Assembly (NCBI GenBank): GCA_965243835.1
Contig: OZ251578.1
Coordinates: 1,760,303-1,824,302 of the forward strand
Reading direction: 5' to 3'
DNA length: 64,000 nucleotides
From: Candidatus Spongiisociaceae bacterium
Lineage (GTDB): Bacteria > Actinomycetota > Acidimicrobiia > Spongiisociales > Spongiisociaceae
Below, in pieces: positions 3,937 to 30,188 of this stretch; position 1 is the stretch's first letter; each line of letters opens with the position of its first letter. The translations under genes were made by a program, and so were the position numbers. Under the pieces are notes generated by a model. It saw only the letters and a list, made by a program, of their open reading frames with translations. It made no database searches and had not been told where the DNA came from.

Positions 3937-3938
3937 TA

Positions 3939-5801: not shown

Positions 5802-5866
5802 AGCGGGCCCTATATTACACTGGTCGGGCGGGGAAGGCAAATCCGCCGTCCCGCCGAGGAGGACTG

Positions 5867-6856: not shown

Positions 6857-9000
6857 ACCCGCCCGGAGATAAGCCCCGATCCCCCCGCACTCCCCAAAAA
6901 CGACCCCCTTGAATTTGCCGCCCACCTGAATTAAACTGAAAAGGCGGAGCAAAACTGAGGGCGGGCGGGTGGGGGGTGGGCGGGACCCCGCCTTCCGAAA
7001 AATTTTTCCGAGAACGCGAAAAAAATACCTATTTTCCCCAATATCTCCGTCAGGGGAACGCCCACCCGCGCTGGCGCCTCCCCCGGCCCCCGTCTTTGTC
7101 ACACCACCGGATTAAGGTAGGTAACCATGATGACATACGACACCCAACTAGCCCATCAACTCCTCCGAGCGGGCGCCGACGACCCGCACGCCGAGTCCGC
7201 CCGCAACAAGAGAAAGCCACCCGCTTCCTAATAACCCCGCCCGAGAAGAAGCACCGCTCCCCCGCACTCCCCAAAACGACCCCCTTGAATTTGTCACACT
7301 AGGCCATTAAAATTAAAGGCGGAGCAAAACTGGGGGCGGGCGGGTCCCCGCCTTCCGAAAATTATTTCCGAGAACGCGAAAAAAATACTTATTCTCCCCA
7401 ATATTTTCCGTCCGAGGAACGCCCACCCGCGCAGTGCCGTCCCTGCCTCCGTCTTTGACACCCCCGGATTAAGGTAGGCAACCATGACATACAACACCCA
7501 ACTAACCCACCAACTCCTCCGAGCGGGCACCGGCGACCCGCACGCCGCGTTCCACCCCCAACCAGAGGAAGCCACCCGCTTCCTAATAACCCCGCCCGAT
7601 GAGAAACACCGCTCCCCCCACACTCCCCAAAAACGACCCCCTTGAATTTGTCACACTCGGCCATTAAAATTAAAGACGGAGCAAAACTGGGGGCGGGCGG
7701 GCGGGGGGTGGGCGGGTCCCCGCCTTCCGAAAAATTTTTCCGAGAACGCGAAAAAAATACTTATATTTATTTCCGTCAGGGGAAACGCCCGCCGCGCCGG
7801 GTCCCGCGCCTTGGCCCCCGTCTTTGTCACACCACCGGATCAAGGTAGGCAACCATGACATACAACACCCAACTAACCCACCAACTCCTCCGAGCGGGCG
7901 CCGACGACCCGCACGCCGAGTTCCACCCGCAACAAGAGAAAGCCACCCGCTTCCTAATAACCCCACCCGAGGAGAAACACCGCTCCCCCCACACTCCCCA
8001 AAACGACCCCCTTGAATTTACCGCCCGCCTGAATTAAACTGAAAAGGCGGAGCAAAACTGGGGGCGGGCGGGACCCCGCCTTCCGAAAAATTTTTCCGAG
8101 AACGCGAAAAAAATACCTATTTCCCCCAATATCTCCGTCAGAGAAACGCCCACCCGCGCTGGCACCTCCCCCGGCCCCCGTCTTTGTCACACCACCGGAT
8201 CAAGGTAGGCAACCATGACATACGACACCCAACTAACCCATCAACTGCTCCAAGCGGGCGCCAGCGACCCGCACGCCGAGTTCCACCCGCAACAAGAGAA
8301 AGCCACCCGCTTCCTAATAACCCCACCCGAGGAGAAACACCGCTCCCCCCACACTCCCCAAAAACGACCCCCTTGAATTTGTCACACTCGGCCATTAAAT
8401 TAAAAAGGCGGAGCAAAACTGGGGGCGGGCGGGCGGGGGGTGGGCGGGTCCCCGCCCTCCGAAAATTTTTTTCCGAGAACGCGAAAAAAATACTTATTTT
8501 TCCCAATATTTCCGTCAGGGGAACGCCTGCCGCGCCGGGTCCCGCGCCTTGACCGCCATCTTTGTCACACCACCGGATCAAGGTAGGCAACCACAACATA
8601 CGACACCCAACTAGCCCATCAACTCCTCCGAGCGGGCACCAACGACCCGCACGCCGCGTTCCACCCGCAACAGGAGAAAGCCACCCGCTTCCTAATAACC
8701 CCACCCGAGGAGAAACACCGCTCCCCCCACACTCCCCAAAAACGACCCCCTTGAATTTGTCACACTCGGCCATTAAATTAAAAAGGCGGAGCAAAACTGG
8801 GGGCGGGCGGGCGGGGGGTGGGCGGGTCCCCGCCCTCCGAAAATTTTTTTCCGAGAACGCGAAAAAAATACTTATTTTTCCCAATATTTCCGTCAGGGGA
8901 ACGCCTGCCGCGCCGGGTCCCGCGCCTTGACCGCCATCTTTGTCACACCACCGGATTAAGGTAGGTAACCATGATGACATACGACACCCAACTAGCCCAT
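6857..9000 (+). repeat. tandem array A: about 5.8 direct copies of a 355-380-bp cassette. Each copy holds a promoter-like element, a G-rich leader, an A5T5 palindrome, an RBS, and the start codon plus about 30 codons of the downstream helicase gene
   Basis: Motif cactccccaaaa(a)cgacccccttgaatttg recurs at about 6887, 7263, 7621, 7991, 8351 and 8731. ATGACATAC start-like segments recur at 7127, 7484, 7855, 8215 and (ATG lost) 8590; the real start is at 8971. Two unit subtypes alternate 1,2,2,1,2,2, implying a higher-order duplication of about 1.1 kb. Copies differ by several percent. Confidence 0.9.
8751..8779 (+). promoter_or_regulatory. sigma70-like promoter candidate (TTGAAT-N17-TAAATT) of the last cassette, about 190 nt upstream of the helicase start; equivalent hexamers are in every cassette
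   Basis: -35 TTGAAT at 8751-8756, 17-nt spacer, -10 TAAATT at 8774-8779. The same architecture (TTGAAT-N17-TAAAAT) is at 7642-7670 and in the other units. Confidence 0.4.
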
Positions 9001-11067
9001 CAACTGCTCCGGGCGGGGGCCGGCGACCCGCGCGCCGGGTTCCGCCCCCAACAGGAGGAGGCCATTCGTTCCCTGGTCGGGGGCCGGGCCCCGAACCGGC
9101 TGTTGCTGGTTCAGAAAACCGGATGGGGCAAAAGCTTCGTCTACTTCATCGCCACCAAGCTCCTGCGCCGACAGGGGAAGGGGCCGGTCCTGCTCATTTC
9201 GCCCCTGTTGGCGTTGATGCGCAACCAGATCGCGATGGCGGAGCGTTTGGGAGTGGCGGCCGCCGCCATCCACTCCGGCAACAAACCGGAATGGAAGAGC
9301 GTGGTCGAGCGACTGTCCCGGAACGAAATCGACATTCTGCTGATCTCGCCCGAACGGTTGGCCAATCAAAAATTTAGGGAAGACGTGTATGCGCCCCACC
9401 TAAGCCAACCAGGTATGTGGGTGGTGGACGAAGCCCACTGCATATCGGACTGGGGGCATGACTTCCGACCGGATTACCGGCGGATCGAGGGCCTGGTCCG
9501 CGGCCTGCCCCCCAATGTTCCGTTGCTGGCCACCACCGCCACCGCCAATGACCGGGTGGTGGACGACCTAGAGCAAATACTGGGGCCGGATCTGCGAATT
9601 ATGCGGGGCGACCTGGACCGGCCGTCCCTGCGTCTGCAAACCATCGCCATGCCCTCCCCCCGGGATCGCTTGGCCTGGTTGGCGGAGAATGTTCCGCAAC
9701 TGCCCGGCAACGGCGTGATTTACACCTTGACCGTCCGGGATGCGAAGCGGGTGGCCCGGTGGTTGCAAAGTTGCGGAGTGGATGTCCGCGCCTACACCGG
9801 CTCCACCGACCCGGCGGAAAGGCCGGTTCTGGAAAATGCCCTGCTGGACAATCGGCTGAAAGCCTTGGCGGCCACCTCCGCCTTGGGCATGGGTTTCGAC
9901 AAACCGGATTTGGGGTTCGTCATTCACTATCAGGCCCCCGGATCGGTGATCGCCTACTACCAGCAGGTGGGCCGGGCGGGGCGCGGCATCGGCGAGGCCC
10001 GCGGTGTGCTGTTGAGCGGCGTCGAGGACCAGGACATCATCGATTACTTCCGCGAAAACGCCTTCCCGACCCGGGCGGAAGTGAAGGAAATGCTGGCCGC
10101 TCTTAGGAGAGCGAAGGACGGGCTGTCGTTCTACGACCTGGAAACCAGGGTCAACCTCAACAGCTACCGCTTGCGCCAAACCCTGAAATTGATGGAGTTG
10201 GAGACCCCGGCTCCGTTGGCCCGGCAGGATTCGGTCTATCAACTGACCCCGCATCGTCTGGGAGCGGGCTTCTGGGAGCGCGTGGAACGTCTCAACCGAC
10301 TGCGCCGGGAGGAGCAGGCTGAAATGCGGGAATACGTCGGGCTTGCATCGGGGCATATGAACTTTCTCATCAAGGCCCTCAACGGCTCCCCCGCCGCCGG
10401 CGATGACCCGCCGACCCTGCCGCCCCTTCCCACCACCATTTCCGGAAAACACCGGGTGGCCGCCGAGGATTTCCAAAAACGCGACTGGTATAGCATCGCG
10501 CCGCGTAAAAAATGGCCGAGGGGCGGCCTCCCCCGACTCGGCGTCCGCGGCCCCATCCCAGAAGACCGCAAATACCAACGGGGACGGGCCCTTAGTTTGT
10601 GGGGATTCGGCGCTCTCGGTCGGCTGGTAAAACAGGGAAAATACCAAGACGCCCGCTTCCCGGATCAATTGGTGGAAGATTGCCGGCGAATGTTCCGCGA
10701 CTGGAACCCGCAACCAACGCCGCGCTGGGTCGCCTGCGTGCCTTCACACAGCCATCCCGACCTGGTACCCGATTTCGCCCGGCGGCTGGCGGACGCCCTG
10801 GGTCTCCCCTTCCGCTCCGTACTGGAAAAAACCGGCAAAAACCGTCCCGCCCAAAAAGTTATGAACAACAGCAGGATGAGGGCCGACAACGCGGACGGAG
10901 CGTTCCGGGTAAACGACCGCCTGATGGGCCCGGAATACGGGGAACCGGTACTGCTGGTGGATGACGTTGTGAATTCAAGATGGACGATGACCGTGTGCGC
11001 CTGGCTGTTGCTGACGCAGGGAAGCGGCGAGGTGTTTCCGTTGGCCTTGGCGCAGGCGGGGGACTAA
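8971..11067 (+). CDS. RecQ-family DNA helicase fused to a C-terminal ComFC/GntX-like phosphoribosyltransferase (PRTase) domain
   Basis: RecQ motifs: PQQEEAI, TGWGKSF (Walker A), DEAHCISDWGHDFRPDY, LATTATA, YQQVGRAGRGIG. C-terminal about 130 aa carries ComFC-like motifs (NADGAFRV ... VLLVDDVVNS), characteristic of type-I PRTase/ComF proteins. Confidence 0.8.
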   Translation: MMTYDTQLAHQLLRAGAGDPRAGFRPQQEEAIRSLVGGRAPNRLLLVQKTGWGKSFVYFIATKLLRRQGKGPVLLISPLLALMRNQIAMAERLGVAAAAIHSGNKPEWKSVVERLSRNEIDILLISPERLANQKFREDVYAPHLSQPGMWVVDEAHCISDWGHDFRPDYRRIEGLVRGLPPNVPLLATTATANDRVVDDLEQILGPDLRIMRGDLDRPSLRLQTIAMPSPRDRLAWLAENVPQLPGNGVIYTLTVRDAKRVARWLQSCGVDVRAYTGSTDPAERPVLENALLDNRLKALAATSALGMGFDKPDLGFVIHYQAPGSVIAYYQQVGRAGRGIGEARGVLLSGVEDQDIIDYFRENAFPTRAEVKEMLAALRRAKDGLSFYDLETRVNLNSYRLRQTLKLMELETPAPLARQDSVYQLTPHRLGAGFWERVERLNRLRREEQAEMREYVGLASGHMNFLIKALNGSPAAGDDPPTLPPLPTTISGKHRVAAEDFQKRDWYSIAPRKKWPRGGLPRLGVRGPIPEDRKYQRGRALSLWGFGALGRLVKQGKYQDARFPDQLVEDCRRMFRDWNPQPTPRWVACVPSHSHPDLVPDFARRLADALGLPFRSVLEKTGKNRPAQKVMNNSRMRADNADGAFRVNDRLMGPEYGEPVLLVDDVVNSRWTMTVCAWLLLTQGSGEVFPLALAQAGD

Positions 11068-12125
11068 TGACCTGGCCGCTTCTGCCCAATACACAGGCGA
11101 TTCTGCTTTTGACCGCGCCCCTGCTGGCGGGAGGGGAGGGCGACGTAGCCGAACGGTTAAACTTGCGGGGATACCGAAAACTGGAAGAACATCTGCGCGG
11201 TCGGGGGCGCGATCTAGCCGACCTGTTGCTGGAGGACCCGGAGGAGGTTCTGGGGGAAAGCCCGCCCTGCGACATCGGGAGAATCAAGGACCTGCTACGG
11301 AGGGGAGGGCGTCTGGCGGCGGCCGTCGACCATTGGAGCACGCGCGCCATCTGGGTGATCAGCCGCTTCGACGAGGAATACCCGCGCCGCTTCCGCACTC
11401 GCCTCGCCGGCTCGGCCCCTCCTCTGCTGTACGGGTGCGGGGACCGGTCGCTCCTCAACCGGGGGGGATTGGCGGTGGTGGGGCCGCGCCAAGCGGACGA
11501 AGACGCCCTGAAATTCGCCCAGTGGACGGGAGGCTTGACCGCCCGGGCCGGGTTTCCTTTGATTTCCGGCGGGGCGCGGGGTGTGGACCGGGCGGCTATG
11601 ACCGGGGCCATGGAAGCGGGCGGGCAGGCGGTGGGGGTGCTGGCGGGTAAACTGGAAAAAGAAATAATGACCCGCGACCGGCGGGATTGGATTCTGGAGG
11701 AGCAGATGTTGATGGTCTCCCCCTACGACCCCGGGGCCGGTTTTCACCGCGGGACTGCTATGGGACGCAACAAGTTGATCTACAACCTGGCCGACGCCGC
11801 CCTGGCGGTGGAAGCGGACCCCAAACGGGGCGGAACCCGCGCCGGGGCGATGAACCAACTGCAGGCCAACCGCAAACAACCCGACCGACAGGTTCCCATA
11901 TACGTACGGGACATCCCCAGCCCCGGCCTGGACTCCCTGCGGGAAAACGGAGCGCAAACCTGGCCCGACCCGGAAACAGCCGACGAACTAAAAAACATCC
12001 TGGACAGCGCAACGGTATTTGACTCTCCGGACCACTCCCAACCTCGCCCACCTGTCATCCCGGCTGATGAGCTATTTCCCGAAACCAGTCAACAGCAACC
12101 ATTGCCCCTCGGTGCCGGAGGGTAA
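11067..12125 (+). CDS. dprA: DprA/Smf-family protein (DNA-processing protein A; SLOG/Rossmann fold), translationally coupled to the helicase gene
   Basis: Start ATG overlaps helicase stop (TAATG at 11065-11069). DprA SAM-like N-domain (EYPRRF..APPLLYGCGD) and Rossmann core (LAVVGPRQA, ISGGARGVDRAAMTGAMEAGGQAVGVLAGKL, SPYDPGAGFHRGTAMGRNKLIYNLADAALAVEA). Confidence 0.7.
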   Translation: MTWPLLPNTQAILLLTAPLLAGGEGDVAERLNLRGYRKLEEHLRGRGRDLADLLLEDPEEVLGESPPCDIGRIKDLLRRGGRLAAAVDHWSTRAIWVISRFDEEYPRRFRTRLAGSAPPLLYGCGDRSLLNRGGLAVVGPRQADEDALKFAQWTGGLTARAGFPLISGGARGVDRAAMTGAMEAGGQAVGVLAGKLEKEIMTRDRRDWILEEQMLMVSPYDPGAGFHRGTAMGRNKLIYNLADAALAVEADPKRGGTRAGAMNQLQANRKQPDRQVPIYVRDIPSPGLDSLRENGAQTWPDPETADELKNILDSATVFDSPDHSQPRPPVIPADELFPETSQQQPLPLGAGG

Positions 12126-12560
12126 CTACTCCTCCGCATCATCAATATTGTTAGGGTTCATAGACTCCGCCAACTGCTCTACTTGGTTTATCAATAATTC
12201 AATCTCGGGAACAGTAGGTACCAAATCATATTCGTGATGGTGACAGGCCCGACTTAGGGCTACCCAAGCGGAGTGGGCATCTTCGGATGTCACAGTATCA
12301 ACTGCAACCCTACCGTCTCGGGCTAATTGCTTAAGACAAGCAAGTTGCGTAAACCGGCTTGTATTCTTCATATAGCGATAATAGTAATGGTCATTCCAAA
12401 GTCTGTCCAGTGTCGCTTCAAGAACTTGGCGAGTCAGCAAAGCCGCCGCCCGATGCCATTCGCCTCGCGGCCCATCAGTATGGTTGAGTAAACCCCGAGC
12501 GAGGTTTAGTAGGTCAAGGGTCATAACGACGTAATCTTTCGGCCAAACTTTGACAATCAT
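12126..12560 (-). CDS. small His-rich hypothetical protein (144 aa), downstream partner of the Rad50/SMC-like ATPase
   Basis: AT-rich ORF overlapping the upstream gene by 47 nt; no recognizable motif. Confidence 0.45.
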   Translation of the reverse strand: MIVKVWPKDYVVMTLDLLNLARGLLNHTDGPRGEWHRAAALLTRQVLEATLDRLWNDHYYYRYMKNTSRFTQLACLKQLARDGRVAVDTVTSEDAHSAWVALSRACHHHEYDLVPTVPEIELLINQVEQLAESMNPNNIDDAEE

Positions 12561-14922
12561 TAATTAGATTAGCCAAATCACCAGAATATTTACTATGAGT
12601 ACCTTTATTAGTATCGCTGAATACCTCTGCAAATCTCTTCCCCCATTTACTGGAGATTTTACCAAACACTTTGTCGCTTTTATTAATACTATCAAATAAC
12701 GCTACAGAGGCTTTCTGACTTAATTTCTTGGCCTCGAATAACTCTTGTTCAATCACCTGATGAGTTTTACCTTTATCCAGCCATCGTCGCCATACTGCTT
12801 CCACACAGGCGGCTTCTAATCCGCTACGACAAAACCCTGGAATAACCCGCCTTGCTATATCCTCTAGCATATCATCATCCTTCAAAATGGACCGTGCCTC
12901 AAAAAAATATTGAATAACCGGATCGCGCTTTTCCGCAATAGTAACTTTCGATTTTACCGATCTCCTAACCTCTAGACAATGGTGTTCAATATCTAAATGA
13001 CGTAAAGACTCCGGGAGTCGATTGTCGTGAGTGAACACAATTAGTTGACGACTCTTGGCAACCTTGGCGAATACTCTGGCTAGTCCATCAACCCGAGCAG
13101 GGTCCATAGATTGTATCGGATCGTCAATAACCAAAAAGCGAAAGGGACTAGCGGGAAGCATTACCCGGGGAAAGAAAATGGACAAAGCCAAACTGTTTAT
13201 TTCTCCTTGACTAACCACAGACAAGGCATCTGTCTTAATATCATCCACTTCCACCCCAAGGGCCACTCTACGTTTAGTGCGACTACCAGTTAGTTGAACG
13301 GAAAGTAAATCAACGTTGCTTTCCAAACGTAGTTCTTTCCAAATTTCCAAGGCCTGGTTCTCTATAGGAGACCAACGGGTGTTACGTATATTTTCGTTTA
13401 CTTCTTTAAGATATTTTTCTGCCCTTTTTAGGTTAGTAATTTCTGATTGCTCTCTCCTTACTCGACAGGCTTTGTGAACCCAAGGCGAAAGAATAGACAT
13501 AGCCGCTAGCCACTTTTCTTCTCTATCAGAGTACAACTGACGAGCTTGTTCAATAATTTTATTTGCTTCACTTTCGACCGAGGAGTATAATGTAAGCAAG
13601 TGTTCATCTATTTCACTTTTATCGTCAGGCAACGAACTCCACTTTTTCCAAATAGAAACCAGCGAACCTATCTCTATAGTTTCAGTGTCGGACAATAGAG
13701 GAGGTTCTATCAAAATCTCAACCTCCTTTATTACGTTTTCCAGATTACTTTTGGCATCCCTATATTTTTGAGAGCTTGCTTTCAGTCTTTCTATCTGCTC
13801 TTCTACTTTGGTAACCCAACTACTATCCAAAATACCTTCTTCGCAAACTGGACAACGATTGTTCTCGTGTGTGCCATAATATTTCAAAGCCAGATTTAAT
13901 ATACTCATTAAGTTTTCGGCGTGCTCTGCTTCCGTACCAGATAAGTTAGACCAATCTGTATATGCCTTGTTCAGTTTTTTTGCTATTTTCAATACTTGCT
14001 CTTGATTTGGAACCTTGATATTTATAAGAGTTTGTAAATCCTGATGATAAGTAACTGGCTCCGATTGAAGACTTTTTATAATATCCAAGTCCCAATTTCG
14101 TTTCTTGACAGCTTCCACAACTTTTGTTGCACGCGGGTCTTCTAGTTGCTCAAACTGGGGAAGAATATTATTTTTTCGTTCTGCCTCTACCTGGTTTGCC
14201 AGTTTTTCTCGTGCTAATCGGGTATTAGCTAAAGCTTTCATCGCTTGGGCAATAATACCAATACCGAGTACTTTGCTGAGAGTGTCATGCAGGGATGACG
14301 GACTATTTTCAATGATGCCAAGTTCCTTATACGATAAAATGGGGCGATATAAATCAAGTGGTTCTTTCCAACCTATTCCATCTAGATCGGAAATTTCCTT
14401 TCCATGATGTTGCGCACTGCATTTTCCTTCTTCCAGTTCGGAATTTTGGGACCAAGTGCACTCTACCATAGTTGGTTTATTCATTCCTTCTACTTGAAAT
14501 CTGGCGGATATTTTGGTATTATTGCCCTGATGGAGATTCCGCCAGCCTTGCTTCCAAACTACCGCTTTTTTGCTTTCCCAGCGATAGCTATCCCCGGTTA
14601 ACAATACTTCCAATCCTTCTGCGAAGCTGGACTTGCCGGAGCCGTTTCTGCCTACAACGACCGTAAGACCCGGGCCGGGAGGTATCTCCAATGTGGCCTC
14701 CGGTCCGATACCGCGAAACCCGGATACCGTTATGTCCTGTAGGTAAACAGGCGGAACCAGCTCTCCGTTGTCCGACATCGTATCGGGTCCATCTACGTAT
14801 TCATCAGTTAAGACGCGCTCCACGTCATCCTCACCCCTGAGGGCGGCTAGCACCAGGCTTATAATCTGCTCGTCTTTAGTAAGTTTGGCGAGCTCTTGTT
14901 CTACTTCTTGATAGAGGCCCAT
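12514..14922 (-). CDS. Rad50/SbcC/SMC-like ABC ATPase with a central CxxC zinc hook (802 aa)
   Basis: Walker [13 protein letters not shown] signature VSQGE, Walker B RFLVIDDP, H-loop IVFTHD, long coiled-coil middle with NRCPVCEEG zinc-hook motif. AT-rich relative to flanks. RBS AGGAGGGG 5 nt before ATG at 14922. Confidence 0.7.
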   Translation of the reverse strand: MGLYQEVEQELAKLTKDEQIISLVLAALRGEDDVERVLTDEYVDGPDTMSDNGELVPPVYLQDITVSGFRGIGPEATLEIPPGPGLTVVVGRNGSGKSSFAEGLEVLLTGDSYRWESKKAVVWKQGWRNLHQGNNTKISARFQVEGMNKPTMVECTWSQNSELEEGKCSAQHHGKEISDLDGIGWKEPLDLYRPILSYKELGIIENSPSSLHDTLSKVLGIGIIAQAMKALANTRLAREKLANQVEAERKNNILPQFEQLEDPRATKVVEAVKKRNWDLDIIKSLQSEPVTYHQDLQTLINIKVPNQEQVLKIAKKLNKAYTDWSNLSGTEAEHAENLMSILNLALKYYGTHENNRCPVCEEGILDSSWVTKVEEQIERLKASSQKYRDAKSNLENVIKEVEILIEPPLLSDTETIEIGSLVSIWKKWSSLPDDKSEIDEHLLTLYSSVESEANKIIEQARQLYSDREEKWLAAMSILSPWVHKACRVRREQSEITNLKRAEKYLKEVNENIRNTRWSPIENQALEIWKELRLESNVDLLSVQLTGSRTKRRVALGVEVDDIKTDALSVVSQGEINSLALSIFFPRVMLPASPFRFLVIDDPIQSMDPARVDGLARVFAKVAKSRQLIVFTHDNRLPESLRHLDIEHHCLEVRRSVKSKVTIAEKRDPVIQYFFEARSILKDDDMLEDIARRVIPGFCRSGLEAACVEAVWRRWLDKGKTHQVIEQELFEAKKLSQKASVALFDSINKSDKVFGKISSKWGKRFAEVFSDTNKGTHSKYSGDLANLINDCQSLAERLRRYDP

Positions 14923-14975
14923 TTACCCCTCCTTGGAGATGCCGTCCCATTCAGTATACCGCACTGATGTTCGGC

Positions 14976-17005: not shown

Positions 17006-17074
17006 CCGCCGCCCATCGTAACCGGCCGCGCCGCCCCAAGCCGCCCAAAACGGGGCGGTCGGCGGACGGCCTCC

Positions 17075-17746: not shown

Positions 17747-17864
17747 CGGCCCCAGACGGCCTTTCCACAGAAAAGGTTCGGTTATGCCGCCTCCCGTCGC
17801 AGACGTTCCCCAGGATAGCCGACCCGCCGGACAAACGCGCCGCCCGCGCCGCCGGCTCAGAAGC

Positions 17865-20135: not shown

Positions 20136-20159
20136 TGATAATCCCGGACGGGGGGCGTT

Positions 20160-21300: not shown

Positions 21301-21322
21301 CGTTGCTAGAGTGGAGGGGGCG

Positions 21323-21396
21323 GGGCGTTTAGCTCAGTCAGGGAGAGCGCTTCCCTTACAAGGAAGAGGTCGGCGGTTCGAACCCGTCAACGCCCA
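21323..21396 (+). tRNA. tRNA-Val (anticodon TAC)
   Basis: Manual cloverleaf folding: acceptor GGGCGTT/AACGCCC, D-arm GCTC-AGTCAGGGA-GAGC, anticodon stem CTTCC/GGAAG with loop CTTACAA, T-arm GGCGG-TTCGAAC-CCGTC, discriminator A; CCA not encoded. Confidence 0.85.
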
Positions 21397-21499
21397 CTCT
21401 TTCCCTCGTCCGCGTTCGCCGGTCCGCGCCGGCGGGTCCGGTTGCGGGGGGAGCTGGGGAAACGCATGAAATAGAAACTTCTTTAGAAGGAGTCGTCCG

Positions 21500-22447: not shown

Positions 22448-22466
22448 GGGGCGGGCCGGAAACCGG

Positions 22467-22877: not shown

Positions 22878-23014
22878 GGGGGCTCCGCCGGCGGCGATAG
22901 CGTGCCGGAGGGGGCGGAGGGCGTTTTGAATTACACGTATGAAATACCCGGAGGGCGCGCCGCGCGGTCGTAGGGTGGAGCGTTCTTACTTCCCCAAGAA
23001 CGAGGTTCCGCCCT

Positions 23015-23275
23015 ATGACCAACCTAAACCCATCCGCGGACGAACGCGAACGCGACCGGTTCTTCTTGGAACGGCTCCGCACCGCCCTGGTTCTGCTCAA
23101 GCCGTTGGAACGGGAAATCATCACCGCCCGGCACGGATTGGACGACCAACCACCCCAGCCCTTGGGCGAGATCGCCCACCGGCACGGGCTGTCCCCCTCC
23201 GAAACCCTGGAAGTGGAGGAGCAGGGGCTCGCCAAACTCCGCCATCCCGCCATGGCCCACTACCTGCGCACATGA
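23015..23275 (+). CDS. stand-alone sigma-70 region-4-like HTH protein (86 aa)
   Basis: LKPLEREIITARHGLDD...LGEIAHRHGLSPSETLEVEEQGLAKLR matches sigma region 4.2 HTH; no regions 2/3 are present. Confidence 0.5.
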   Translation: MTNLNPSADERERDRFFLERLRTALVLLKPLEREIITARHGLDDQPPQPLGEIAHRHGLSPSETLEVEEQGLAKLRHPAMAHYLRT

Positions 23276-23300
23276 CAACCAACCCCGGGCGGGCCCGCCG

Positions 23301-24779
23301 TCAGCCGGGGGCCAACGTCCAGCCCCGGGGATGGGCGGCGACCAGCCGCTCCGCCGACTCCGGCCCCCACGATCCGGCCCGGTAAGGCTCGGGTCGGCCC
23401 TGCGCCCGCAGCGCCGGCGCGTAAAACCGCCACGCCTCCTCCACCTCGTCCCCCCGCACGAACAGGGTCCGGTCGTCGCACATTACGTCGTGGAGCAGTG
23501 TCTCGTAGGCGTCCGGCAACCGGCCGAACATGTCCTCGTAGTCGAAAGTGAACGGCTGGGCGGCCAGACGCGGGGCTTCCACGGGAACCTGCACGTCGAA
23601 CAGCAGGTCGAATCCTTCGTCGGGTTGCAACCGGAAATAGAGGACGTTGCCCGGCGGGCGATCCCGGTCGTAACGTTTGAACAGCGACACCGGCGGCTCC
23701 CGGAAAGTGACCGCCACTTGGGTGAGGCGAGCGGGCAGGCGCTTGCCGGTGCGCAGGTAAAAGGGGACCCCCTGCCAGCGCCAGCTGTCGACGAACACCC
23801 GCAGGGCGGCGTAGGTTTCAGTCGTCGAATCCGCCGCCACCCCCGGCTCTTCCAGGTATCCGGGCGCCGGGCTCCCGTCGACCGTCCCCGCCGCGTACTG
23901 GCCGAGGACCGCATCCTCCGGGCGCAGGGCCCGCAGGGACTGCAGCACTTTCACTTTCTCGTCCCGGACGGCTTCCGCTTCGAAAGAGGGGGGCGGTTCC
24001 ATCGCCACCAGGCTCAGGACCTGCGTGGCGTGGTTCTGAATGACGTCCCGCACCGCCCCCGACCGGTCGTAGTAGCCGGCCCGGGAGCCGATGCCGTCCC
24101 GTTCGGCCACCGTGATCTGAACGTTGTCGATGCGGTCCCGGTTCCAAACCGACTCGAACACCGGGTTGGCGAAGCGGAACACCAGCAGGTTCTGGACGGT
24201 GGCCTTGCCCAGGTAATGGTCGATGCGGAAGATGCGGCTTTCGTCGAAATAGCGGTGCAGGACGCGGTTCAACTCCCGGGCCGATTCCAGGTCGGAACCG
24301 AAAGGTTTTTCCACCACCAGCCGGGTCCAGCCCGAACTGCGGTGCAATCCCGCCTCCCCCAGGGCCCGCACCGCGGCGGGCACCACCTGCGGGTGCACCG
24401 CCAGGTAGAAGACGCGGTTGCCGCCCAGCCCGTGTTCCCGCTCCAAGGCGGGTATGCGCTCCGCCAAAGCCCGGTAGGAGCCGGGGTCTTCCCCGACCGG
24501 CTGGTAATAAAGCATGCGGTCGCACCACCGGTCCCGGACTTGGGCGTCCTCCGGGAAGGCTTCGGCCAGAGCGGCGCGGGACAGTTCCCGAAACTCCCGG
24601 TCGGTCAGGGGGGAGCGGGCCGCCCCCAGCACCGCGCACCGGTCTTGGAGCCCCGCCTCCCGCACCAGATGGTAAAGAGCGGGGAGCAACTTGCGGCGGA
24701 ACAGGTCGCCGGTGGCCCCGAACACCGTCAACAAATGGCTTTCCGCCCGCCCCCCGCCCGCCGTCGCCGGAAACATCAC
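23301..24779 (-). CDS. zwf: glucose-6-phosphate 1-dehydrogenase
   Basis: G6PD signature RIDHYLGK, NAD(P)-binding FGATGDL, EKPFG; 492 aa. Confidence 0.95.
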   Translation of the reverse strand: MMFPATAGGGRAESHLLTVFGATGDLFRRKLLPALYHLVREAGLQDRCAVLGAARSPLTDREFRELSRAALAEAFPEDAQVRDRWCDRMLYYQPVGEDPGSYRALAERIPALEREHGLGGNRVFYLAVHPQVVPAAVRALGEAGLHRSSGWTRLVVEKPFGSDLESARELNRVLHRYFDESRIFRIDHYLGKATVQNLLVFRFANPVFESVWNRDRIDNVQITVAERDGIGSRAGYYDRSGAVRDVIQNHATQVLSLVAMEPPPSFEAEAVRDEKVKVLQSLRALRPEDAVLGQYAAGTVDGSPAPGYLEEPGVAADSTTETYAALRVFVDSWRWQGVPFYLRTGKRLPARLTQVAVTFREPPVSLFKRYDRDRPPGNVLYFRLQPDEGFDLLFDVQVPVEAPRLAAQPFTFDYEDMFGRLPDAYETLLHDVMCDDRTLFVRGDEVEEAWRFYAPALRAQGRPEPYRAGSWGPESAERLVAAHPRGWTLAPG

Positions 24780-25900
24780 CTACCCCCTGCGACCGCCGCC
24801 AGCGACGCTCGCCGCCCCGGCCGACTTGGGGGGTTGTCCGCCGACGGCATTAAACCCGGCCACCGGACCCTCCCCGACATCCACCCGCCGCCCCCGACCG
24901 ACGAGAGCCTGACAAATAGCCTTCGGTCCAGGCGGCGAACACCCGACCGAAAGTGAAACCGGTTCCCGGAACCGGGCAGGCCCGCCCCGACCCGCAACCT
25001 CCAAAAACAACCCATCGTCGCCCCCACCCCCGCGCAACCGGCCCACGGACGCCGAAAACGACGAAACCGACCGCGAACGCCATCCGACAAGACATCCCGC
25101 AACGAAATTAAACACCGCGCACTCCCCCGGCCAAACCCGCGCCCCGACGACCGGACCCTCCCCGACGCCCACCCATAACACCTGCCGCCCCCGGCCCGAG
25201 CAGGAAGCGCCTCGCAACGAAACAGGTCGCCGGTGGCCCCGAACACCGCCGACAAATGACCTTCCACCCATCCCTACACCCACCGCCGGAAACATCCCCG
25301 CCAACGGCCAAGCCCGGCAAAGACCGGACCCCGGCCGCCGGGTCCTCCCCGACATCCACCCGCCGCCGACGACCGACGAGAGCCTGACAAACACCCTCCG
25401 GCCCGGGCGGCGAACAACCGACCGCAAGCGAAACCGGTTCCCGGAACAGACAGGCCCACCCCGCCCCGACCCGCAACCTCCAAAAACAAACCATCGTCGC
25501 CCCCGCCCCCGCGCAACCAGCCAACGGGCCGACAACGAAGGCCGAAACCGACCGCGAACGCCATCCGACAAGACATCCCGCAACGACATTAAACACCGCG
25601 CACTCCCCCGGCCAAACCCGCAAGACCCGCACCCCGACCCACCGGACGCTCCCCGACGCCCGCCGCCCCCGGCCCGAGCAAGAAACGCCTCGGGGCACCC
25701 GAGCGGCGAACACCCGACCGAAAGCGAAACCGGTTCCCGGAACAGACAAGGCCCGCCCCGACCCGACCCGCAACCTCCAGAAACAGTCCGTTGCCGCCCC
25801 CGCCCCTGCGCAACCGGCCAACGGATGCCATAAGCGAAGGCCGAAACCGACTGCGACCGCTGTCCGATAAAAGGCCTCGCAACGAAATTAAACACCGCGC
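24780..25900 (-). repeat. tandem array D: degenerate tandem copies (units about 280-500 bp) of the pgi-3'-end / intergenic / zwf-5'-end junction
   Basis: Segments resembling the last about 200 nt of pgi (cgacgagagcctgaYaa ... gaaaccggttcccggaac) recur at about 24860, 25340 and 25640 (plus the copy in the 3' part of ORF 25888..26472). A copy of the zwf start region (aacaggtcgccggtggccccgaacaccg) is at about 25210-25270. cgcaacgaaattaaacaccgcgc recurs at 25092, 25591 and 25872. Confidence 0.8.
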
Positions 25901-26472
25901 GCTCCGCCGGCCAAGCCTGATAAGGTCCCCGCGGCGGTCACCGGATCCTCCCCTGCATACGCCCGCAATGCCCGCCGTTCCCGAACGAGGAGAGCCTGAT
26001 AATCGCCTCCGGCCGGGGCGGAGTCGCTTCCGTTATCCTCCGTCCTACGCTCCCCGTCTTGAATCAGCCAGGCGATCTGTTCTGCGTTCAAAGTAGGCGG
26101 AGCCAACTGCGAGGCAAACGATTTCCAAGGATGCTTGCCCGGATTTTTGTTGGGCACGTTCTTCACGAAGGTCAGTTGCAGATGCCAGCCCGGTTCCAAC
26201 CCGGAGCGGATGCAACGTTCCACTTCGGTGCGCAGCGCCTTCTTCTCCAAGCTGATCCTCCGGTAGGGGCCGTGGCCGCCTTCGCTCTGGTTCGGAACCG
26301 TGGGATCGTAAATCTGAACCAAACCGACCGGCTTCCCGGCGGCGGCAAGAGCGCCGCTCTCCAGGTTGATGAAGGTCACAACGCCTACCACCGTAAAGCC
26401 GGGCTCCGGCCACTTGACGCAACGGCCCCGCAAAACGCCCCGCGCGCCTTCTGCCAAATTGAGGTGCGTCAT
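25888..26472 (-). CDS. hypothetical protein (194 aa) whose C-terminal about 45 aa is a diverged duplicate of the PGI C-terminus (chimeric ORF)
   Basis: C-terminus APAGGDYQALLVRERRALRAYAGEDPVTAAGTLSGLAGGARGV parallels the PGI C-terminus AQAGGDYQALIGRGRRVLRVDVGEDPAAGVRALLDLARGGA. N-terminal 150 aa unrecognized. Confidence 0.45.
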   Translation of the reverse strand: MTHLNLAEGARGVLRGRCVKWPEPGFTVVGVVTFINLESGALAAAGKPVGLVQIYDPTVPNQSEGGHGPYRRISLEKKALRTEVERCIRSGLEPGWHLQLTFVKNVPNKNPGKHPWKSFASQLAPPTLNAEQIAWLIQDGERRTEDNGSDSAPAGGDYQALLVRERRALRAYAGEDPVTAAGTLSGLAGGARGV

Positions 26473-26539
26473 TGCCTTTTCTTCTTTCTCCTCCGCCGCC
26501 CGCCCGATTTGGGGGGGTCCACCGACGGCGCCGACGGCA

Positions 26540-28188
26540 TTAAGCGCCGCCCCGGGCCAAGTCCAGCAAGGCCCGCACCCCGGCCGCCGGGTCCTCCCCG
26601 ACGTCCACCCGCAACACCCGCCGTCCCCGGCCGATGAGGGCCTGGTAGTCGCCTCCGGCCTGGGCGGCGATCAACCGACCGAAAGTGAAATCGGTTTCCG
26701 GAACGGGCAGGTCCGGGCCGCCCCGGTCCACGATCTGCAGAAACATCCCGTTGTCGGCCCCGCCCTTGTGCAACTGGCCGGTGGAATGCAAAAAACGGGG
26801 GCCGAAGCCGACGGTGACCGCCGTCCGGTGGGCGTCCCGCAGGGCGCGGCGCAGTTCCGCCAGGAGCGGGGAGGCCGGGCCGTCCATCGGCAGGTAAGCC
26901 TGGACGGCCAGGTAATCGCCGGGGCGGAGGCCGGCCAGCCATTCCCCCCAGGCGGCGGCCAAAAGCGGGGGGCGGGCGGCGTCCGTCGCCTCCGGCAACG
27001 GTGGCCCCTCCCCGGACATGGCCCGGTTGGCCAAGTCTTTGGCCACTTGCACGTCCGGCTGGTCGAACGGGTTGATCCCCAACACCGCCCCGGCGGCGGC
27101 CGTCGCCATCTCGCTCCGGTACAACTCCCCTCCCAAGTCATAGGGGTCGTCCGCCGTGATGCGCACAATGGGATGGCCGACGGCCTGCAGGGCTTCCAAA
27201 GCGGCCGGGACGCCGGCCGGGTCGTCGTCGGCCAACGCCAGGTGAATGAACAGCCGGTCCGGGCCGTAGGAGTCGGGACCGCCTACCGGTTCGTCGGTCA
27301 CCGGAACCAAACCGGTTCCCCGTTTGCCGGTGCTTTCCGCCAGCAACTGCTCCGCCCACGCTCCGTAGGCGGCCAGGGAGGGGGAGGTCAGGAAAGTGAT
27401 CTTGTCCCGGCCGGCCCGGGCGGCCTCCCCCATCACCGCCCCCAGTTTCAGGCCCGGATTGTCCGGCGGGGGACGGTGCGGGCCGCATTCTTCCATCATC
27501 TCCGCCGCCCCGGACAGCAGACGGGCGGCGTCCATTCCCAGCAGGGCGGCCGGAACCAGCCCGAAGGCGGTCAGGGCCGAATAGCGCCCGCCCACCTCGG
27601 GCGGAGCCCGGAACACCCGGCGAAACCCCCGCTCTTCGGCCAGGGATTCCAAACCGGAACCGGGATCGGTTATCGCGGCGAACCGGCTCCCCGGCTGGGC
27701 CGCAACCCGTCCGACCTGCTCCCAGAAGTACCGGAACAGGGACAGGGTTTCCAGGGTGCCCCCCGATTTGGAGGACACCAAAAAGAGGGCGCGCTCCGGA
27801 TCCAGGCGGGCCCCGGCCTCCCGCACCGCCGCCGGGTGGGTGCTGTCCAAAACCGTCACATCCGGATAACCGGGAGCGGACCCGAATATTTCCCGAAACA
27901 CTTCCGGGGCCAGGCTGGAGCCGCCCATCCCCAACAGGACCACCCGGTCGCACCATGGGCGAACCTCCTCGGCGAAGGCCCGCCACTCCGGCAGGGTTGC
28001 GGCGGCTACGGCCGGGGCCCGCAACCAGCCCAACCGGTCGGTCAGTTCGGGGACGGGCTCCGCCGACCACAGGGCGTGGTCGCCTTCCCACAGCCGGGTT
28101 CCGAAATCGGCCCGCTCCCAAGCCCGCAGGCGCTCTGCGACCGGCTCGGCCAAATCCGCCAACGCATAGGAAACGGTCGCGCTCATAA
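26540..28188 (-). CDS. pgi: glucose-6-phosphate isomerase
   Basis: PGI motifs (GMGGSSLAPEV, SKSGGTLET, GGRYSALTAFGL, bidomain length about 549 aa). Start set to ATG at 28188 (MSATVSYALADL); the longer ORF-track version runs into repeat array C. Confidence 0.85.
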
Positions 28189-28189
28189 C

Positions 28190-30188
28190 GTTAATGCTCC
28201 ATTCATAAGGGGGCGTTTGCTCCTGCTTTCCCGTTTTCGCACCGGGACCTACCCCGGACTTTACCGGCTGATTATGCCACCCCCGGCGGGCGGCGAACCG
28301 GCGCGGCGCGGTATCCGCGCACCGCCGCCCTTTGCCAGCCATAAAATCCACCGGGCCGGTAACGCCGCCGCATCGCAGAACCCGCACCGGATTAACAAAA
28401 GCCCGCCCGCCCCCGCCGGGCGAATCGGGGCCGGCCAGCTCCCGGTAACGGAACAAACTCTCCCTGACCGTCAAGGCCGACACCGGCGCGCGGCCAGCGA
28501 GCAACCCCCGCCCGGACAGCGAAACCAGGCTACGCGACGTTACGCAACCACCAAGGCGTCCCCATCAACGCGCATAGCCCCGGGCAGAGTCACATAAACA
28601 GTGGCGCAAGCGGGAAAATCCACCGAACCGGTAAAACCGCCGCATCCAAAACCCGCACCGAACTAACAAAAACGCACCGCCCCTCGGCGGGCGAAATCAG
28701 GACCGCACCGCTCCCCCGACAACCCAAACAAACCCTCCCCAACCGGCCACGGCCGACACCAGCGCACGGCTTACGAGTAGGGACCAGCGGGCAACGAACC
28801 CGATTGTACGGACTTACACAACCACCAAGGCATCCACATCAACGCGCATAGCCCCGGGCAAGGTCACCGTACACAGTGGTGCGAGCGGGGAAATCCACCG
28901 GACCGGTAAAACCGCCGCATCCAAAACCCGCACCTAACTAACAAAAACGCACCGCCCCTCGGCGGGCGAATCGGGGCCAGCCGGGCTCCCCGACAACCGG
29001 AACAAACCCTCCCCAACCGGCCAACGCCAACACCGGAGCACGGCCAGCACGCAACCCCCGGCCGGACAGCGAAACCAGGCTACGCGACGTTACGCAACCA
29101 CCAAGGCATCCCCATCAATACGCATCACCCCGGACAAGGTCACGTACACAGTGGTGCGAGCGGGGAAATCCACCGGACCGGTAAAACCGCCGCATCCAAA
29201 ACCCGCACCTAACTAACAAAAACGCACCGCCCCTCGGCGGGCGAATCGGGGCCAGCCGGGCTCCCCGACAACCGGAACAAACCCTCCCCAACCGGCCAAC
29301 GCCAACACCGGAGCACGGCCAGCACGCAACCCCCGGCCGGACAGCGAAACCAGGCTACGCGACGTTACGCAACCACCAAGGCATCCCCATCAATACGCAT
29401 CACCCCGGACAAGGTCACGTACACAGTGTGCGAGCGGGGAAAATCCACCGAACCGGTAAAACCACCGCATCCAAAACCCGCACCGAACTAACAAAAACGC
29501 ACCGCCCCTCGGCGGGCGAATCGGGGCCAGCCGGGCTCCCCGACAACCGGAACAAACCCTCCCCAACCGGCCAACGCCAACACCGGAGCACGGCCAGCAC
29601 GCAACCCCCGGCCGGACAGCGAAACCAGGCTACGCGACGTTACGCAACCACCAAGGCATCCCCATCAACGCGCATAGACCCGGGCAAGGTCACCGTACAC
29701 AGTGGTGCGAGCGGGGGAAATCCACCGAACCGGTAAAACCACCGCATCCAAAACCCGCACCGAACTAACAAAAACGCACCGCCCCTCGGCGGGCGAATCG
29801 GGGCCAGCCGGGCTCCCCGACAACCGGAACAAACCCTCCCCAACCGGCCAACGCCAACACCGGAGCACGGCCAGCACGCAACCCCCGGCCGGACAGCGAA
29901 ACCAGGCTACGCGACGTTACGCAACCACCAAGGCGTCCACTTCAATACGCATCGCCCCGGACAGGGTCACGTACACAGTGTGCGAGCGGGGGAAATCCAC
30001 CGGACCGGTAAAACCGCCGCATCCAAAACCCGCACCGGATAACAAAAGCGCACCGCCCCTCGGCGGGCGAATCGGGGCCGGCCGGCTCCCCGACAACCGG
30101 AACAAACCCTCCCGACCGGCCACGGCCGACACCGGCGCGCGGCCGGCGGGCAACCCACGGCGGGGCGGCTAACCCGGGTTGCGCGGCC
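28190..30188 (-). repeat. tandem array C: 7 decayed direct copies (about 275 bp each) of an internally deleted ridA gene, between the ridA stop and the pgi start
   Basis: ttacgcaaccaccaagg recurs at 28540, 28813, 29090, 29365, 29640, 29916 and 30189 (the genuine ridA 3' end), with periods of 273-277 bp. Units retain ridA-like 3' (TVYVTLPGAMRIEVDALVVA-like) and 5' segments. The units at 29090 and 29365 are near-identical. Confidence 0.9.

Follow-up and report, generated by a model that had tools for sequence, protein, structure and literature searches.

What process places tandem arrays of gene fragments and spacer at several gene boundaries within one short stretch of a bacterial genome, and what becomes of the extra copies? 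The question is raised by a 64-kb stretch (hereafter, the window) of the genome of a Candidatus Spongiisociaceae bacterium, an actinobacterial symbiont of sponges, in which a preliminary description had proposed four independent arrays produced by a duplication process. Analysis by TRF, a repeat finder, and self-blastn confirmed that the window contains exactly four large-unit direct arrays (Table 1), all within the range 6857-30188 and all consisting of head-to-tail direct copies in constant register. The blastn E-values of these matches, from 0 to 1e-15, exclude chance similarity. The neighboring genes were confirmed by Pfam, and the possibility that the units are RNA genes was ruled out by Rfam and tRNA scans of the window, which returned tRNA-Val only. 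The clustering of all four arrays in 23.4 of the 64 kb is statistically unremarkable (P = 0.14).

Each array is built out of local sequence, every unit having arisen from the DNA that flanks it. Arrays A and B have in common a 27-nt G-rich tract, in opposite orientation; apart from this tract, no array sequence was matched in another array or elsewhere in the 64 kb. No array is otherwise related to any other, and the earlier grouping into two arrays unrelated to the other two has to be given up. With no sequence common to the arrays and with units that copy the flanking genes, they do not qualify as transposable elements, MITEs, or integron cassettes.

Table 1. Arrays, their parent genes, and neighboring features in the window
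Feature	Position	Strand	Description
Luciferase-like monooxygenase gene	5867-6856	+	Pfam PF00296, E 1.3e-59; array A units have its last 14 nt at their left edge
Array A	6843-9064	none	Units of 354-381 bp, 5.9 copies, 85% matches
PsyrT, RecQ-like helicase with PRTase-like C-terminus	8971-11067	+	Pfam; PADLOC E 2.5e-253, residues 2-696 of 698
PsyrA, DprA-like partner of PsyrT	11064-12125	+	Pfam PF02481; PADLOC E 1e-97; outside the arrays; start inferred by analogy with L081, annotated with a 4-nt overlap
MFS transporter gene	18975-20125	-	Annotated as MFS_1, 383 aa, in colinear L083; also compared with L001
Array B	20163-21252	none	Units of 433-443 bp, ~2.5 copies, 84%
tRNA-Val(TAC)	21323-21397	+	Rfam 69.2 bits, ARAGORN; right-hand neighbor of array B
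zwf, glucose-6-phosphate dehydrogenase	23301-24776	-	Pfam; first ~100 nt copied once in the array, at 25198-25296
pgi/zwf array (D in the preliminary description)	24677-26827		Units of ~475 and 296 bp
Dead part of pgi/zwf array	24780-25887	none	T 6%, A+C 0.70
ORF194	25888-26472	-	194-codon gene lodged in the pgi/zwf array
pgi, glucose-6-phosphate isomerase	26540-28186	-	Pfam; homologs at 95-84% identity
ridA array (C in the preliminary description)	28343-30266		Units of 275 bp, 7 copies, 89%
Dead part of ridA array	28343-30188	none	Nearly seven 275-bp units, T 7%
Intact ridA	30189-30566	-	Pfam PF01042, E 1.3e-29; parent of the ridA array
Possible fifth duplication, old and small	57158-57456		Two ~150-bp copies, 72% identity, in a C-rich intergenic tract; weak (self-blastn among the evidence)

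The units of array A begin near positions 6843, 7221, 7576, 7947, 8307, and 8685, and each combines the end of the luciferase-like gene with the whole promoter and 5′ region and the first ~32 codons of the helicase gene psyrT, the 5′ end of which is the parent of the coding part; the intact helicase gene is continuous with the last unit only. In the pgi/zwf array, whose units descend from the pgi 3′ end, the final ~290 nt of pgi occur four times and the 5′ end of zwf once as a clear copy. The dead part of the array comprises decayed pgi-3′ copies at 24855-25086, 25298-25567, and 25605-25866, a partial copy, and the zwf 5′ copy. The fourth pgi-3′ copy (25909-26021) is read in frame as the C-terminal ~40 codons of ORF194, a homolog of which (148 aa) resides at a different intergenic site in the related locus L086 (4452-4898). 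ORF194 has no match in Pfam and only a weak match to an unknown family in PHROGs.

The ridA unit extends from approximately codon 10 to the stop codon plus ~30 nt of downstream spacer, and the register of the array continues into intact ridA up to position 30266. Array B, which starts 38 nt upstream of the MFS start codon, is essentially the spacer between the MFS and tRNA-Val genes, including a promoter-like element followed by a G-rich tract on the - strand. Any MFS coding portion amounts to at most ~50 nt and is barely alignable; the MFS 5′ end was rejected as the source of unit B on the basis of an unconvincing alignment, and a search of the window for a parent of this unit returned only the 27-nt tract in common with array A. 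The earlier proposal that units include the ends of adjacent genes needs correction for array B, which is essentially spacer, and for the ridA array, whose unit is most of a gene and more than a gene end. Each duplicated segment has at least one edge in a spacer, so that all neighboring genes have kept an intact copy.

The extra copies have diverged by 10-25% from their parents. Dead copies have lost their start codons. Internal deletions ranging from ~7 to 45 nt are also present in the ridA units; at least two, measuring ~37 and 7 nt in the alignment, have lengths not divisible by three. Within arrays, adjacent units are near-identical and older units are divergent.

A graded series of progressively closer strains shows that the arrays arose recently and stepwise in one species-level lineage. 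In agreement with the earlier suggestion of lineage specificity, relatives at ~80% and ~85-88% identity lack them, those at ~91% have part of the set, and the complete set occurs at ~95% and in the window. The corresponding regions of L001, L087, and L091 are colinear, with junctions of 5, 0, 62, and 122 bp, and the 68-kb scaffold behind L087 and L091 extends across all four sites and is array-free at each. A gap of 5 nt separates the stop codon of ridA from the start codon of pgi in L001, which also has an ATGA overlap between pgi and zwf and a 62-bp MFS-tRNA spacer; in L087, as in L001, the pgi/zwf array is absent, the two genes abutting or overlapping. The ridA array is likewise absent from L086 and L087, where spacers of 128 and 96 bp occupy its position. 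Single-copy versions exist of the array B site in L087 (a ~386-bp spacer) and of the array A site in L083 and L091 (spacers of 252 and 122 bp, respectively).

Intermediate states are found in two lineages. That of L083 and L086 carries array A as a single copy, lacks the ridA array, and has at least 3.7 younger copies in its pgi/zwf array (L086). That of L081 and L085 has array A with the junction found in the window, and its pgi/zwf array (L085) is colinear with that of the window at 95% identity. Contigs of relatives break off within two of the arrays: the L085 contig terminates inside the ridA array, and six short-read contigs from five samples terminate within the array B unit. The comparison of copy numbers among strains that had been suggested earlier gave, for array A, 1 copy in L083, at least 2 in L090 (a lower bound, as a 100-N scaffold gap lies inside the array), 3.9 in L081, and 5.9 in the window. 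Because this series documents a stepwise origin, misassembly and mobile elements are excluded; units taken from their own flanks and clean empty sites in relatives bear out the earlier preference for a duplication process over a mobile element. A survey of 80 homologous loci of other species revealed paralogous gene pairs and intragenic domain repeats (L018, L049) and no such arrays, and metagenome scans with array motifs returned no match.

These comparisons show that the junctions were ancestrally compact and that, at each site, a segment of 275-480 bp was duplicated head to tail. The founding junction of array A, TTCCTA joined to ATAACCCC, is identical in the window and L081 and exhibits only 3-5 nt of microhomology. 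This single junction points to an illegitimate, slippage-type founding event at the microhomology. Such founding duplications would be rare, with copy number changing afterward by unequal recombination or slippage between repeats, and near-identical neighboring units together with copy-number change among strains are the pattern that these processes yield. A dedicated recombination activity, raised as a possibility in the preliminary description, finds no support in so short a microhomology or in later changes that look like ordinary unequal recombination. Nor does a preference for gene boundaries have to be part of the mechanism, since in a gene-dense genome only duplications that reach a spacer leave their neighbors intact and survive; a duplication confined to the inside of a gene would break that gene and presumably be purged. 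G4 motifs, another suggested factor, do concentrate in the arrays, which make up 10% of the window and contain 13 of its 39 motifs, but the motifs are inconsistent in strand, with those of array A opposite to those of the other arrays, and the ridA array has almost none. We therefore rejected them as a common cause.

In their direct copies in register, local origin with empty sites, single microhomology junction, homogenized adjacent units, and copy-number polymorphism with the founding junction in common, the arrays resemble bacterial tandem duplications and large-unit VNTRs. They differ in that their units are small (275-480 bp) and composed of gene fragments and spacer, in that several occur in one short stretch of one lineage, and in that extra copies persist to such high divergence. 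Mycobacterial MIRU-VNTRs are intercistronic repeats of actinobacterial operons that vary in copy number among strains and belong to one dispersed 46-101 bp family present at many loci. The arrays described here are also strain-variable actinobacterial tandem repeats between operon genes, but each is unique, derives from its own flanking genes, and has larger units; they do not form a dispersed family.

The most unusual feature of the arrays, which the preliminary description had missed, is that the dead copies decay in a one-strand fashion. With changes polarized by outgroups and counted once per alignment column, the + strand of dead copies exhibits 88 G>A versus 6 C>T changes on 206 G and 196 C sites (P = 1e-23). 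T>C likewise exceeds A>G (34 vs 12, P = 1e-6), as does G>C its counterpart C>G (26 vs 9). The per-site rates of T>C (49% of T sites) and G>A (43% of G sites) are similar. Adenine is one of the bases that changed least (A>G at 12 of 91 A sites), unlike in diversity-generating retroelements, whose variable repeats differ at adenines of the template. An independent, young pgi/zwf copy in L086 (c1) shows the same asymmetry (11 G>A vs 1 C>T; 8 T>C vs 0 A>G), and the young copies of this locus have changed almost purely by transitions. In contrast, ~20 kb of flanking genes, mostly at synonymous sites and on the same branches, yielded 234 G>A versus 222 C>T and 103 T>C versus 154 A>G. The A+C content is 0.62-0.70 in the arrays versus 0.51-0.54 in single-copy spacers of relatives.

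The polarity of decay is identical for parent genes on the + and - strands, and the changes exhibit no dinucleotide preference beyond base composition. All dead DNA in the window is also repeated, and the effects of being dead and of being repeated are inseparable there. Substitutions in the fourth pgi copy, within ORF194, are strand-symmetric. The central ridA units are 97-100% identical, indicating that duplication itself is not strongly mutagenic; the one-strand bias must therefore accumulate over time. One-strand decay limited to arrays is not predicted by standard bacterial mutation models, and a literature search for a bacterial precedent found none, only mitochondrial parallels.

Viewed from the - strand, the changes in dead copies are C>T and A>G, which gives a G+T-rich and an A+C-rich strand. 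In animal mitochondrial DNA, G+T-rich and A+C-rich strands arise through these same changes, which are attributed to the time spent single-stranded during replication; replication is considered the chief cause of the G-rich heavy strand, and boundary-spanning duplications leave one intact and one decaying copy by tandem duplication-random loss (PMC10730292). Both features, the paired intact and decaying copies at gene boundaries and the C>T and A>G changes on one strand, were found in the arrays. The mitochondrial asymmetry is molecule-wide and includes functional genes, whereas here it is confined to the arrays and the flanking genes are symmetric.

We consider it reasonably probable that the four arrays are independent local tandem duplications followed by copy-number drift, comparable to large-unit VNTRs and requiring no special machine, and that their dead copies decay on one strand by way of a single-stranded - strand. 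It is the resemblance to the mitochondrial heavy- and light-strand pattern that suggests single-strandedness. Within the arrays, the - strand may be exposed repeatedly, either when it is the lagging-strand template of a fork that stalls or slips or when it is resected to a 3′ tail during fork restart, and the fork events responsible would be those that alter array copy number. Deamination would then strike both C and A on the exposed strand, in the manner of the animal mitochondrial heavy strand. Spontaneous adenine deamination is far slower than cytosine deamination. The frequency of T>C, per site as high as that of G>A, fits the mitochondrial pattern and also polymerase G·T mispairing or + strand damage at G and T. 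Across the window, the cumulative GC skew runs monotonically, and the background skew is weak, with the sign seen in the arrays. We infer the direction of replication through the window from this weak skew alone; the orientation of KOPS-like GGGNAGGG in the window gave no signal on it.

Displaced single strands are also deaminated at immunoglobulin class-switch regions and other R-loop-prone, GC-skewed repeats, which are kilobase tandem arrays with a G-rich strand, and an R-loop model predicts a polarity set by transcription. The arrays are similarly kilobase-sized with one G-rich strand, but array A, at a + strand gene, has the polarity of the arrays in the - strand operon, and R-loops or transcription were consequently rejected as the sole cause of the bias.

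Alternatively, the arrays might simply reveal a general neutral mutation bias of the genome, arising from replication or transcription, as the sole unconstrained DNA in view, and would have no special DNA metabolism of their own. Third codon positions and pooled spacers are weakly skewed with the sign seen in the arrays, the monotonic GC skew points the same way, and the single polarity of all four arrays is what a replication effect would give. We nonetheless judge this reading rather unlikely, as the flanking genes are symmetric for G>A and C>T on the same branches and lean in the opposite direction for T>C and A>G. Selection on GC3 would lower G>A and C>T alike and cannot mask a 15:1 asymmetry, and a transcriptional origin is at odds with the common polarity of array A at a + strand gene and the ridA and pgi/zwf arrays at - strand genes.

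The arrays could also have been kept as useful DNA, by multiplying promoters (arrays A and B) or by uncoupling the ridA-pgi-zwf operon, with its translational coupling, and supplying new regulatory spacers; the A+C composition would then reflect selection instead of mutation. Each array A unit carries a predicted sigma-70-like promoter, a PafBC-type TGTCac-N10-TAnnnT element, and a hairpin followed by a T-run; moreover, bacteria usually delete useless DNA, and these arrays have outlasted 5-10% sequence divergence. Usefulness appears unlikely, however, when start codons and -10 elements have disappeared from some units, the number of copies ranges freely between 1 and 5.9, and relatives without any array do well. 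RNA transcribed from array A would be rich in A and C and RNA of the other arrays in G and U, so that no RNA-level selection could act on all of them alike.

A repeat-targeting enzyme, such as a DNA deaminase that acts on one strand of duplicated or structured DNA, would be to bacteria what RIP is to fungi or AID to switch regions. The confinement of the bias to repeated, dead copies, its absence from adjacent single-copy DNA, and the almost purely transitional changes of young copies would be expected of such an enzyme. RIP itself introduces only C:G to T:A changes, does so on both strands, prefers CpA, and strikes all copies; to our knowledge, no RIP enzyme exists in bacteria. The arrays share with RIP a concentration of transitions in duplicated DNA that spares the single-copy neighborhood, but here T>C is equally frequent per site, one strand only is affected without context preference, and the functional copy is intact. 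A>G and C>T have similar per-site rates on the - strand, for which a single known deaminase class would be insufficient, the 8-25% change is that expected from neutral time alone, and the pgi copy in ORF194 is repeated yet symmetric. We therefore regard an enzyme of this kind as improbable.

That a dedicated amplification system or a mobile element made the arrays is highly improbable. The candidate actor named in the preliminary description, the RecQ-PRTase/DprA operon near array A, gains some appeal from its position and from the grouping of four arrays in 23 kb. The operon is the widespread PsyrTA (RqlHI) defence/toxin-antitoxin pair, with the helicase and DprA-like genes matching known PsyrT and PsyrA over their full length; it is ~60% identical across many phyla and is also carried by the array-free L083 and L091 lineages. 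In the window it is simply a neighbor with a duplicated promoter and 5′ end and no link to array formation, and the clustering statistics, the lack of a common sequence, and the local derivation of all units likewise speak against a dedicated system. Assembly artifacts have a negligible chance of explaining the arrays: although relatives' short-read contigs break at arrays B and ridA and L090 has its gap in array A, the copies are diverged rather than identical, the same arrays and junctions recur in independent assemblies from different samples (L081, L085, L086), and the window is drawn from a 3.18-Mb contig.

Beyond the account of local duplication and single-strand decay, we raise tentatively, and with some doubt, the idea that tandem arrays in this organism are subject to a repeat-restricted, single-strand mutational regime whose bias is at least 10:1 next to symmetric genes. 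One strand of the non-coding repeats would be unpaired for long periods, through slipped or stalled forks or break-induced restart, and would decay as mitochondrial DNA does; a radical version of the idea would be an enzymatic, RIP-like activity directed at repeats. The arrays in any case provide an unusually clean, dated example of compact bacterial operons gaining junk DNA, with a series that leads from overlapping pgi and zwf genes to a 1.8-kb spacer within ~10% sequence divergence and that also explains why the junk DNA sits at gene ends. Dead copies adjoin their living parents, so that the organism supplies natural controls. If single-strandedness in the arrays is persistent, repeat instability would be tied to strand-specific mutagenesis, a link discussed for mitochondria, switch regions, and break-induced replication. 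Copy-number change and mutation of the arrays would then stem from common events, and dead tandem repeats would act as an internal log of replication-fork problems in this uncultivated symbiont.

Tandem Repeats Finder, a direct-repeat search and self-blastn of the 64-kb window together confirmed the four arrays of tandem duplications put forward in the preliminary description, with every copy direct and E-values of 0 to 1e-15. Apart from a weak ~150-bp pair (two copies, 72% identity, in a C-rich intergenic tract), the direct-repeat search and self-blastn returned no further large-unit repeats in these 64 kb. Each copy of this pair has a terminal CGGTTGCGAACGG-like hairpin, and the pair could represent a duplication of the array kind that is smaller and of greater age. 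The clustering of the four arrays within 23.4 of the 64 kb is not significant (P = 0.14).

The luciferase-like monooxygenase, RecQ-like helicase, DprA-like protein, G6PD (zwf), PGI and RidA were confirmed as neighbours by Pfam, and a tRNA-Val gene adjoins array B. The unit of array A, at the junction of the luciferase-like and helicase genes, consists of the last 14 nt of the former, the entire helicase upstream region and helicase codons 1 to ~32, with the unit-end junction falling between TTCCTA and ATAACCCC. Each ridA unit repeats most of the gene together with ~30 nt of its downstream spacer, and internal deletions occur in the units, at least two with lengths not divisible by three. In the pgi/zwf array, the last ~290 nt of pgi occur four times and the first ~100 nt of zwf once, and among these copies is placed ORF194, a 194-codon open reading frame whose C-terminus is one of the four pgi copies. 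Array B, initially described as a duplicated MFS 5′ region, proved to be ~2.5 repeats of the MFS/tRNA-Val spacer, and comparison with the MFS 5′ end could not show MFS coding sequence within it. Two arrays had been considered unrelated in sequence to the other two; the lack of relation stands, but it holds for all four, except for a 27-nt G-rich tract common to arrays A and B in opposite orientation.

Features of the window, with strand where assigned
Feature	Position	Strand	Details
Array A	6876-9064		period 378, 5.9 copies; Tandem Repeats Finder
Array B	20163-21252		diverged copies; direct-repeat search and self-blastn
pgi/zwf array	24677-26827		diverged copies; direct-repeat search and self-blastn
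ridA array	28344-30266		period 275, 7.0 copies; Tandem Repeats Finder
~150-bp pair	57158-57456
tRNA-Val	21323-21397		array B neighbour
ORF194	25888-26472	-	in pgi/zwf array
Low-GC defence island	550-14922
PDC-M33 A/B/C-like genes	550-5840	-	defence island
SspD-like gene	1423-2238		defence island
PsyrT/PsyrA	8971-12125		defence island
LmuB-like SMC ATPase	12514-14922		defence island; GC 0.43; missing from 85% lineage (L091)
TTGTCR-N3-N8-TANNNT sites	7096-7118, 7291-7313, 7648-7670, 8379-8401, 8757-8779, 8940-8962
TTGTCR-N3-N8-TANNNT site	54784-54806	-
TTGTCR-N3-N8-TANNNT site	58341-58363	+
G-tract/hairpin elements	6959-6997, 7689-7729, 8421-8461, 8799-8839		array A

By zwf protein, the closest species-level relative (80% amino-acid identity) is a MAG of 'Candidatus Spongiisociaceae', a family of sponge symbionts within the Acidimicrobiia. 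This genome (L001) is colinear with the window over 12.5-37.8 kb and is without arrays B, pgi/zwf and ridA. Relatives closer than L001 are independent metagenome assemblies that form a graded series. Because of this series, the arrays can be stated to be real, to have been inserted into once-compact junctions, to have arisen successively in one species-level lineage and to vary in copy number among strains, as the copies of array A illustrate (1 in L083, 3.9 in L081, 5.9 in the window). The array-free and partly arrayed relatives also bear out the initial proposal of a lineage-specific duplication process.

State of each array in the relatives and in the window
Genome	Nucleotide identity	Array A	Array B	pgi/zwf	ridA
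L001	~78-83%		none (MFS-tRNA spacer 62 bp)	none (genes overlap in ATGA)	none (ridA stop to pgi start 5 nt)
L087/L091 (one 68-kb scaffold)	~85-88%	none (122 bp)	single-copy spacer	none (genes abut)	none (96 bp)
L083/L086	~90-91%	single copy (252 bp)	contigs end in B	3.7 or more young copies; ORF194 absent	none (128 bp)
L081/L085/L090	~94-95%	3.9 copies with the window junction; in L090 at least 2, with a scaffold gap	contigs end in B	95% identical to and colinear with window, including ORF194	contig ends in array
Window		5.9 copies	~2.5 copies	4 pgi-3′ copies and ORF194	7 copies

L001 carries a run of ~20 C (G on the other strand; ~13410-13440) at the later site of array B, between tRNA-Val and the start of the MFS gene. 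The relatives' short-read assemblies break at arrays B and ridA (contig ends in L081-L085 and L090), and array A is scaffolded with 100 Ns in L090 (9765-9864); such arrays will therefore be systematically missing or collapsed in short-read MAGs. Another sponge Acidimicrobiia MAG (L018, 16011-16943) contains three G+T-rich copies of ~310 bp at 85-88% identity, which appear to code for repeats of a protein domain, the frame being possibly interrupted; this repeat differs in kind from the window arrays.

Each array had a single origin: the junction of array A is common to the window and L081, and derived bases at the edge of the pgi copies are common to the window and L086. Microhomology at the array A junction amounts to a few bases only, which suggests that founding took place by a rare duplication, either illegitimate or of slippage type. 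The number of copies then shifts as is usual for tandem repeats, and the units bear the signature of unequal recombination or slippage. Array A units 2 and 3 are 96-100% alike over the compared stretches, as are units 5 and 6, and units 1 and 4 share parts at 96% identity; the central ridA units are mutually 97-100% alike, yet all are ~25% diverged from the parent, the intact ridA gene beside the array. The position of the arrays at gene ends needs no special mechanism, because in a gene-dense genome a duplication of 300-500 bp is harmless only if it reaches a spacer and spares an intact copy of each neighbour, a rule that fits all four arrays. Mobile elements, MIRUs, DGRs and RIP products were considered and rejected. 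The arrays add a new case to a known class, large-unit tandem duplications of VNTR type, and display every defining feature of it that could be tested, so that the original preference for a process over a mobile element is upheld. The dedicated recombination activity also entertained is not indicated, given the few-base microhomology and the usual mode of copy-number change.

Nor is the RecQ-PRTase/DprA operon behind array A, once named as a candidate actor, implicated. Its helicase is PsyrT (E 2.5e-253, full length) and its DprA-like protein PsyrA (E 1e-97), of the PsyrTA (RqlHI) defence/toxin-antitoxin system, and the operon is ~60% identical across many phyla. Because this known defence system is widespread and also present in array-free relatives, the operon is no more than a neighbour, with a promoter region that by chance became duplicated. 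The motif TTGTCR-N3-N8-TANNNT occurs eight times in the window against 0.18 expected by chance, and the copy 7 nt ahead of the PsyrT start, TGTCac-N10-TAAGGT, is spaced like tGTCgg(N10)tA(N3)T, the PafBC motif of mycobacteria (PMC8635444). The sequence suggests a putative DNA-damage-inducible, leaderless PsyrTA promoter, multiplied by array A. Four array A units (starts near 6843, 7576, 8307 and 8685) contain a G4-type tract (GGGGGCGGGCGGGCGGGGGGTGGGCGGG) followed by a hairpin and A/T runs, downstream of a TTGAAT-17-TAAAAT promoter; this element could be a short leader or attenuator RNA. In the single-copy ancestor represented by L083, the G-tract is present and the hairpin is weaker, and array B has a similar promoter and G-tract layout on the other strand. 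G4 motifs, which had been proposed for a check, are enriched in the arrays, but on a strand that differs from array to array.

ORF194 is a small gene with a weak match to phrog_1911 (E 1e-4), and it lies inside the pgi/zwf array in both the window and L085. In L086 (4452-4898), a 148-aa homologue (73% nucleotide identity) is flanked by a lactamase_B gene on one side and an SBP gene on the other, and L087 has the gene at neither site. The pattern resembles that of a small gene moving from one intergenic site to another, and in the window ORF194 has become fused to a pgi 3′ copy.

The dead copies, that is, the decayed extra units, have changed with a marked bias toward one strand. On the + strand, the pgi/zwf and ridA arrays contain 6-7% T, with an A+C fraction of 0.67-0.70. 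Changes were polarised by the functional parent and an outgroup orthologue, with each alignment column counted once, and compared by per-site Fisher tests. On this strand, G>A changes number 88 (206 G sites) against 6 C>T (196 C sites; P = 1e-23), T>C changes 34 (69 T sites) against 12 A>G (91 A sites; P = 1e-6), and G>C changes 26 against 9 C>G. Copies of the helicase, a + strand gene (G>A 12, C>T 0), and copies of the − strand genes ridA and pgi share one polarity. The signal is cleaner still in L086, where independent younger copies include c1 (G>A 11, C>T 1, T>C 8, A>G 0). Substitutions in the pgi copy read within ORF194 are strand-symmetric. Three controls tie the bias to the arrays. Over ~20 kb of flanking genes, substitutions polarised with three taxa along the same branches are strand-symmetric (G>A 234 and C>T 222; T>C 103 and A>G 154). 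The relatives' single-copy spacers have an A+C fraction of 0.51-0.54, and third codon positions are skewed only weakly, with the same sign as the arrays.

Read on the − strand, the array changes are C>T and A>G, a pair that on the animal mitochondrial heavy strand has been attributed to single-stranded time in replication (PMC10730292). The best inference is that the − strand within the arrays would be repeatedly exposed as single-stranded DNA. One possible alternative is a general bias of all dead DNA, since the dead DNA of the window is all repeated as well. Other alternatives would place the asymmetry in one-sided polymerase G.T mispairing during repair synthesis, in damage to G and T on the + strand or in a repeat-directed enzyme. 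A general replication bias would reach the synonymous sites of flanking genes, where it is not seen. Transcription cannot set the polarity, because the parent genes lie on both strands and their copies share one polarity.

Repeated single-stranded exposure of the − strand, which the weak background skew suggests to be the lagging-strand template, could come at slipped or stalled forks, or as a resected 3′ tail in fork restart, and the exposing events would be the same as those that alter copy number. Taken as a whole, the picture most resembles tandem duplication and random loss in mitochondria, combined with strand asymmetry, although in the window arrays the asymmetry is confined to the repeats. 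No bacterial precedent for such repeat-confined asymmetry was found in the literature searched, which is weak evidence. Whereas the arrays themselves are of a known kind, what is new is their array-restricted, one-strand decay.
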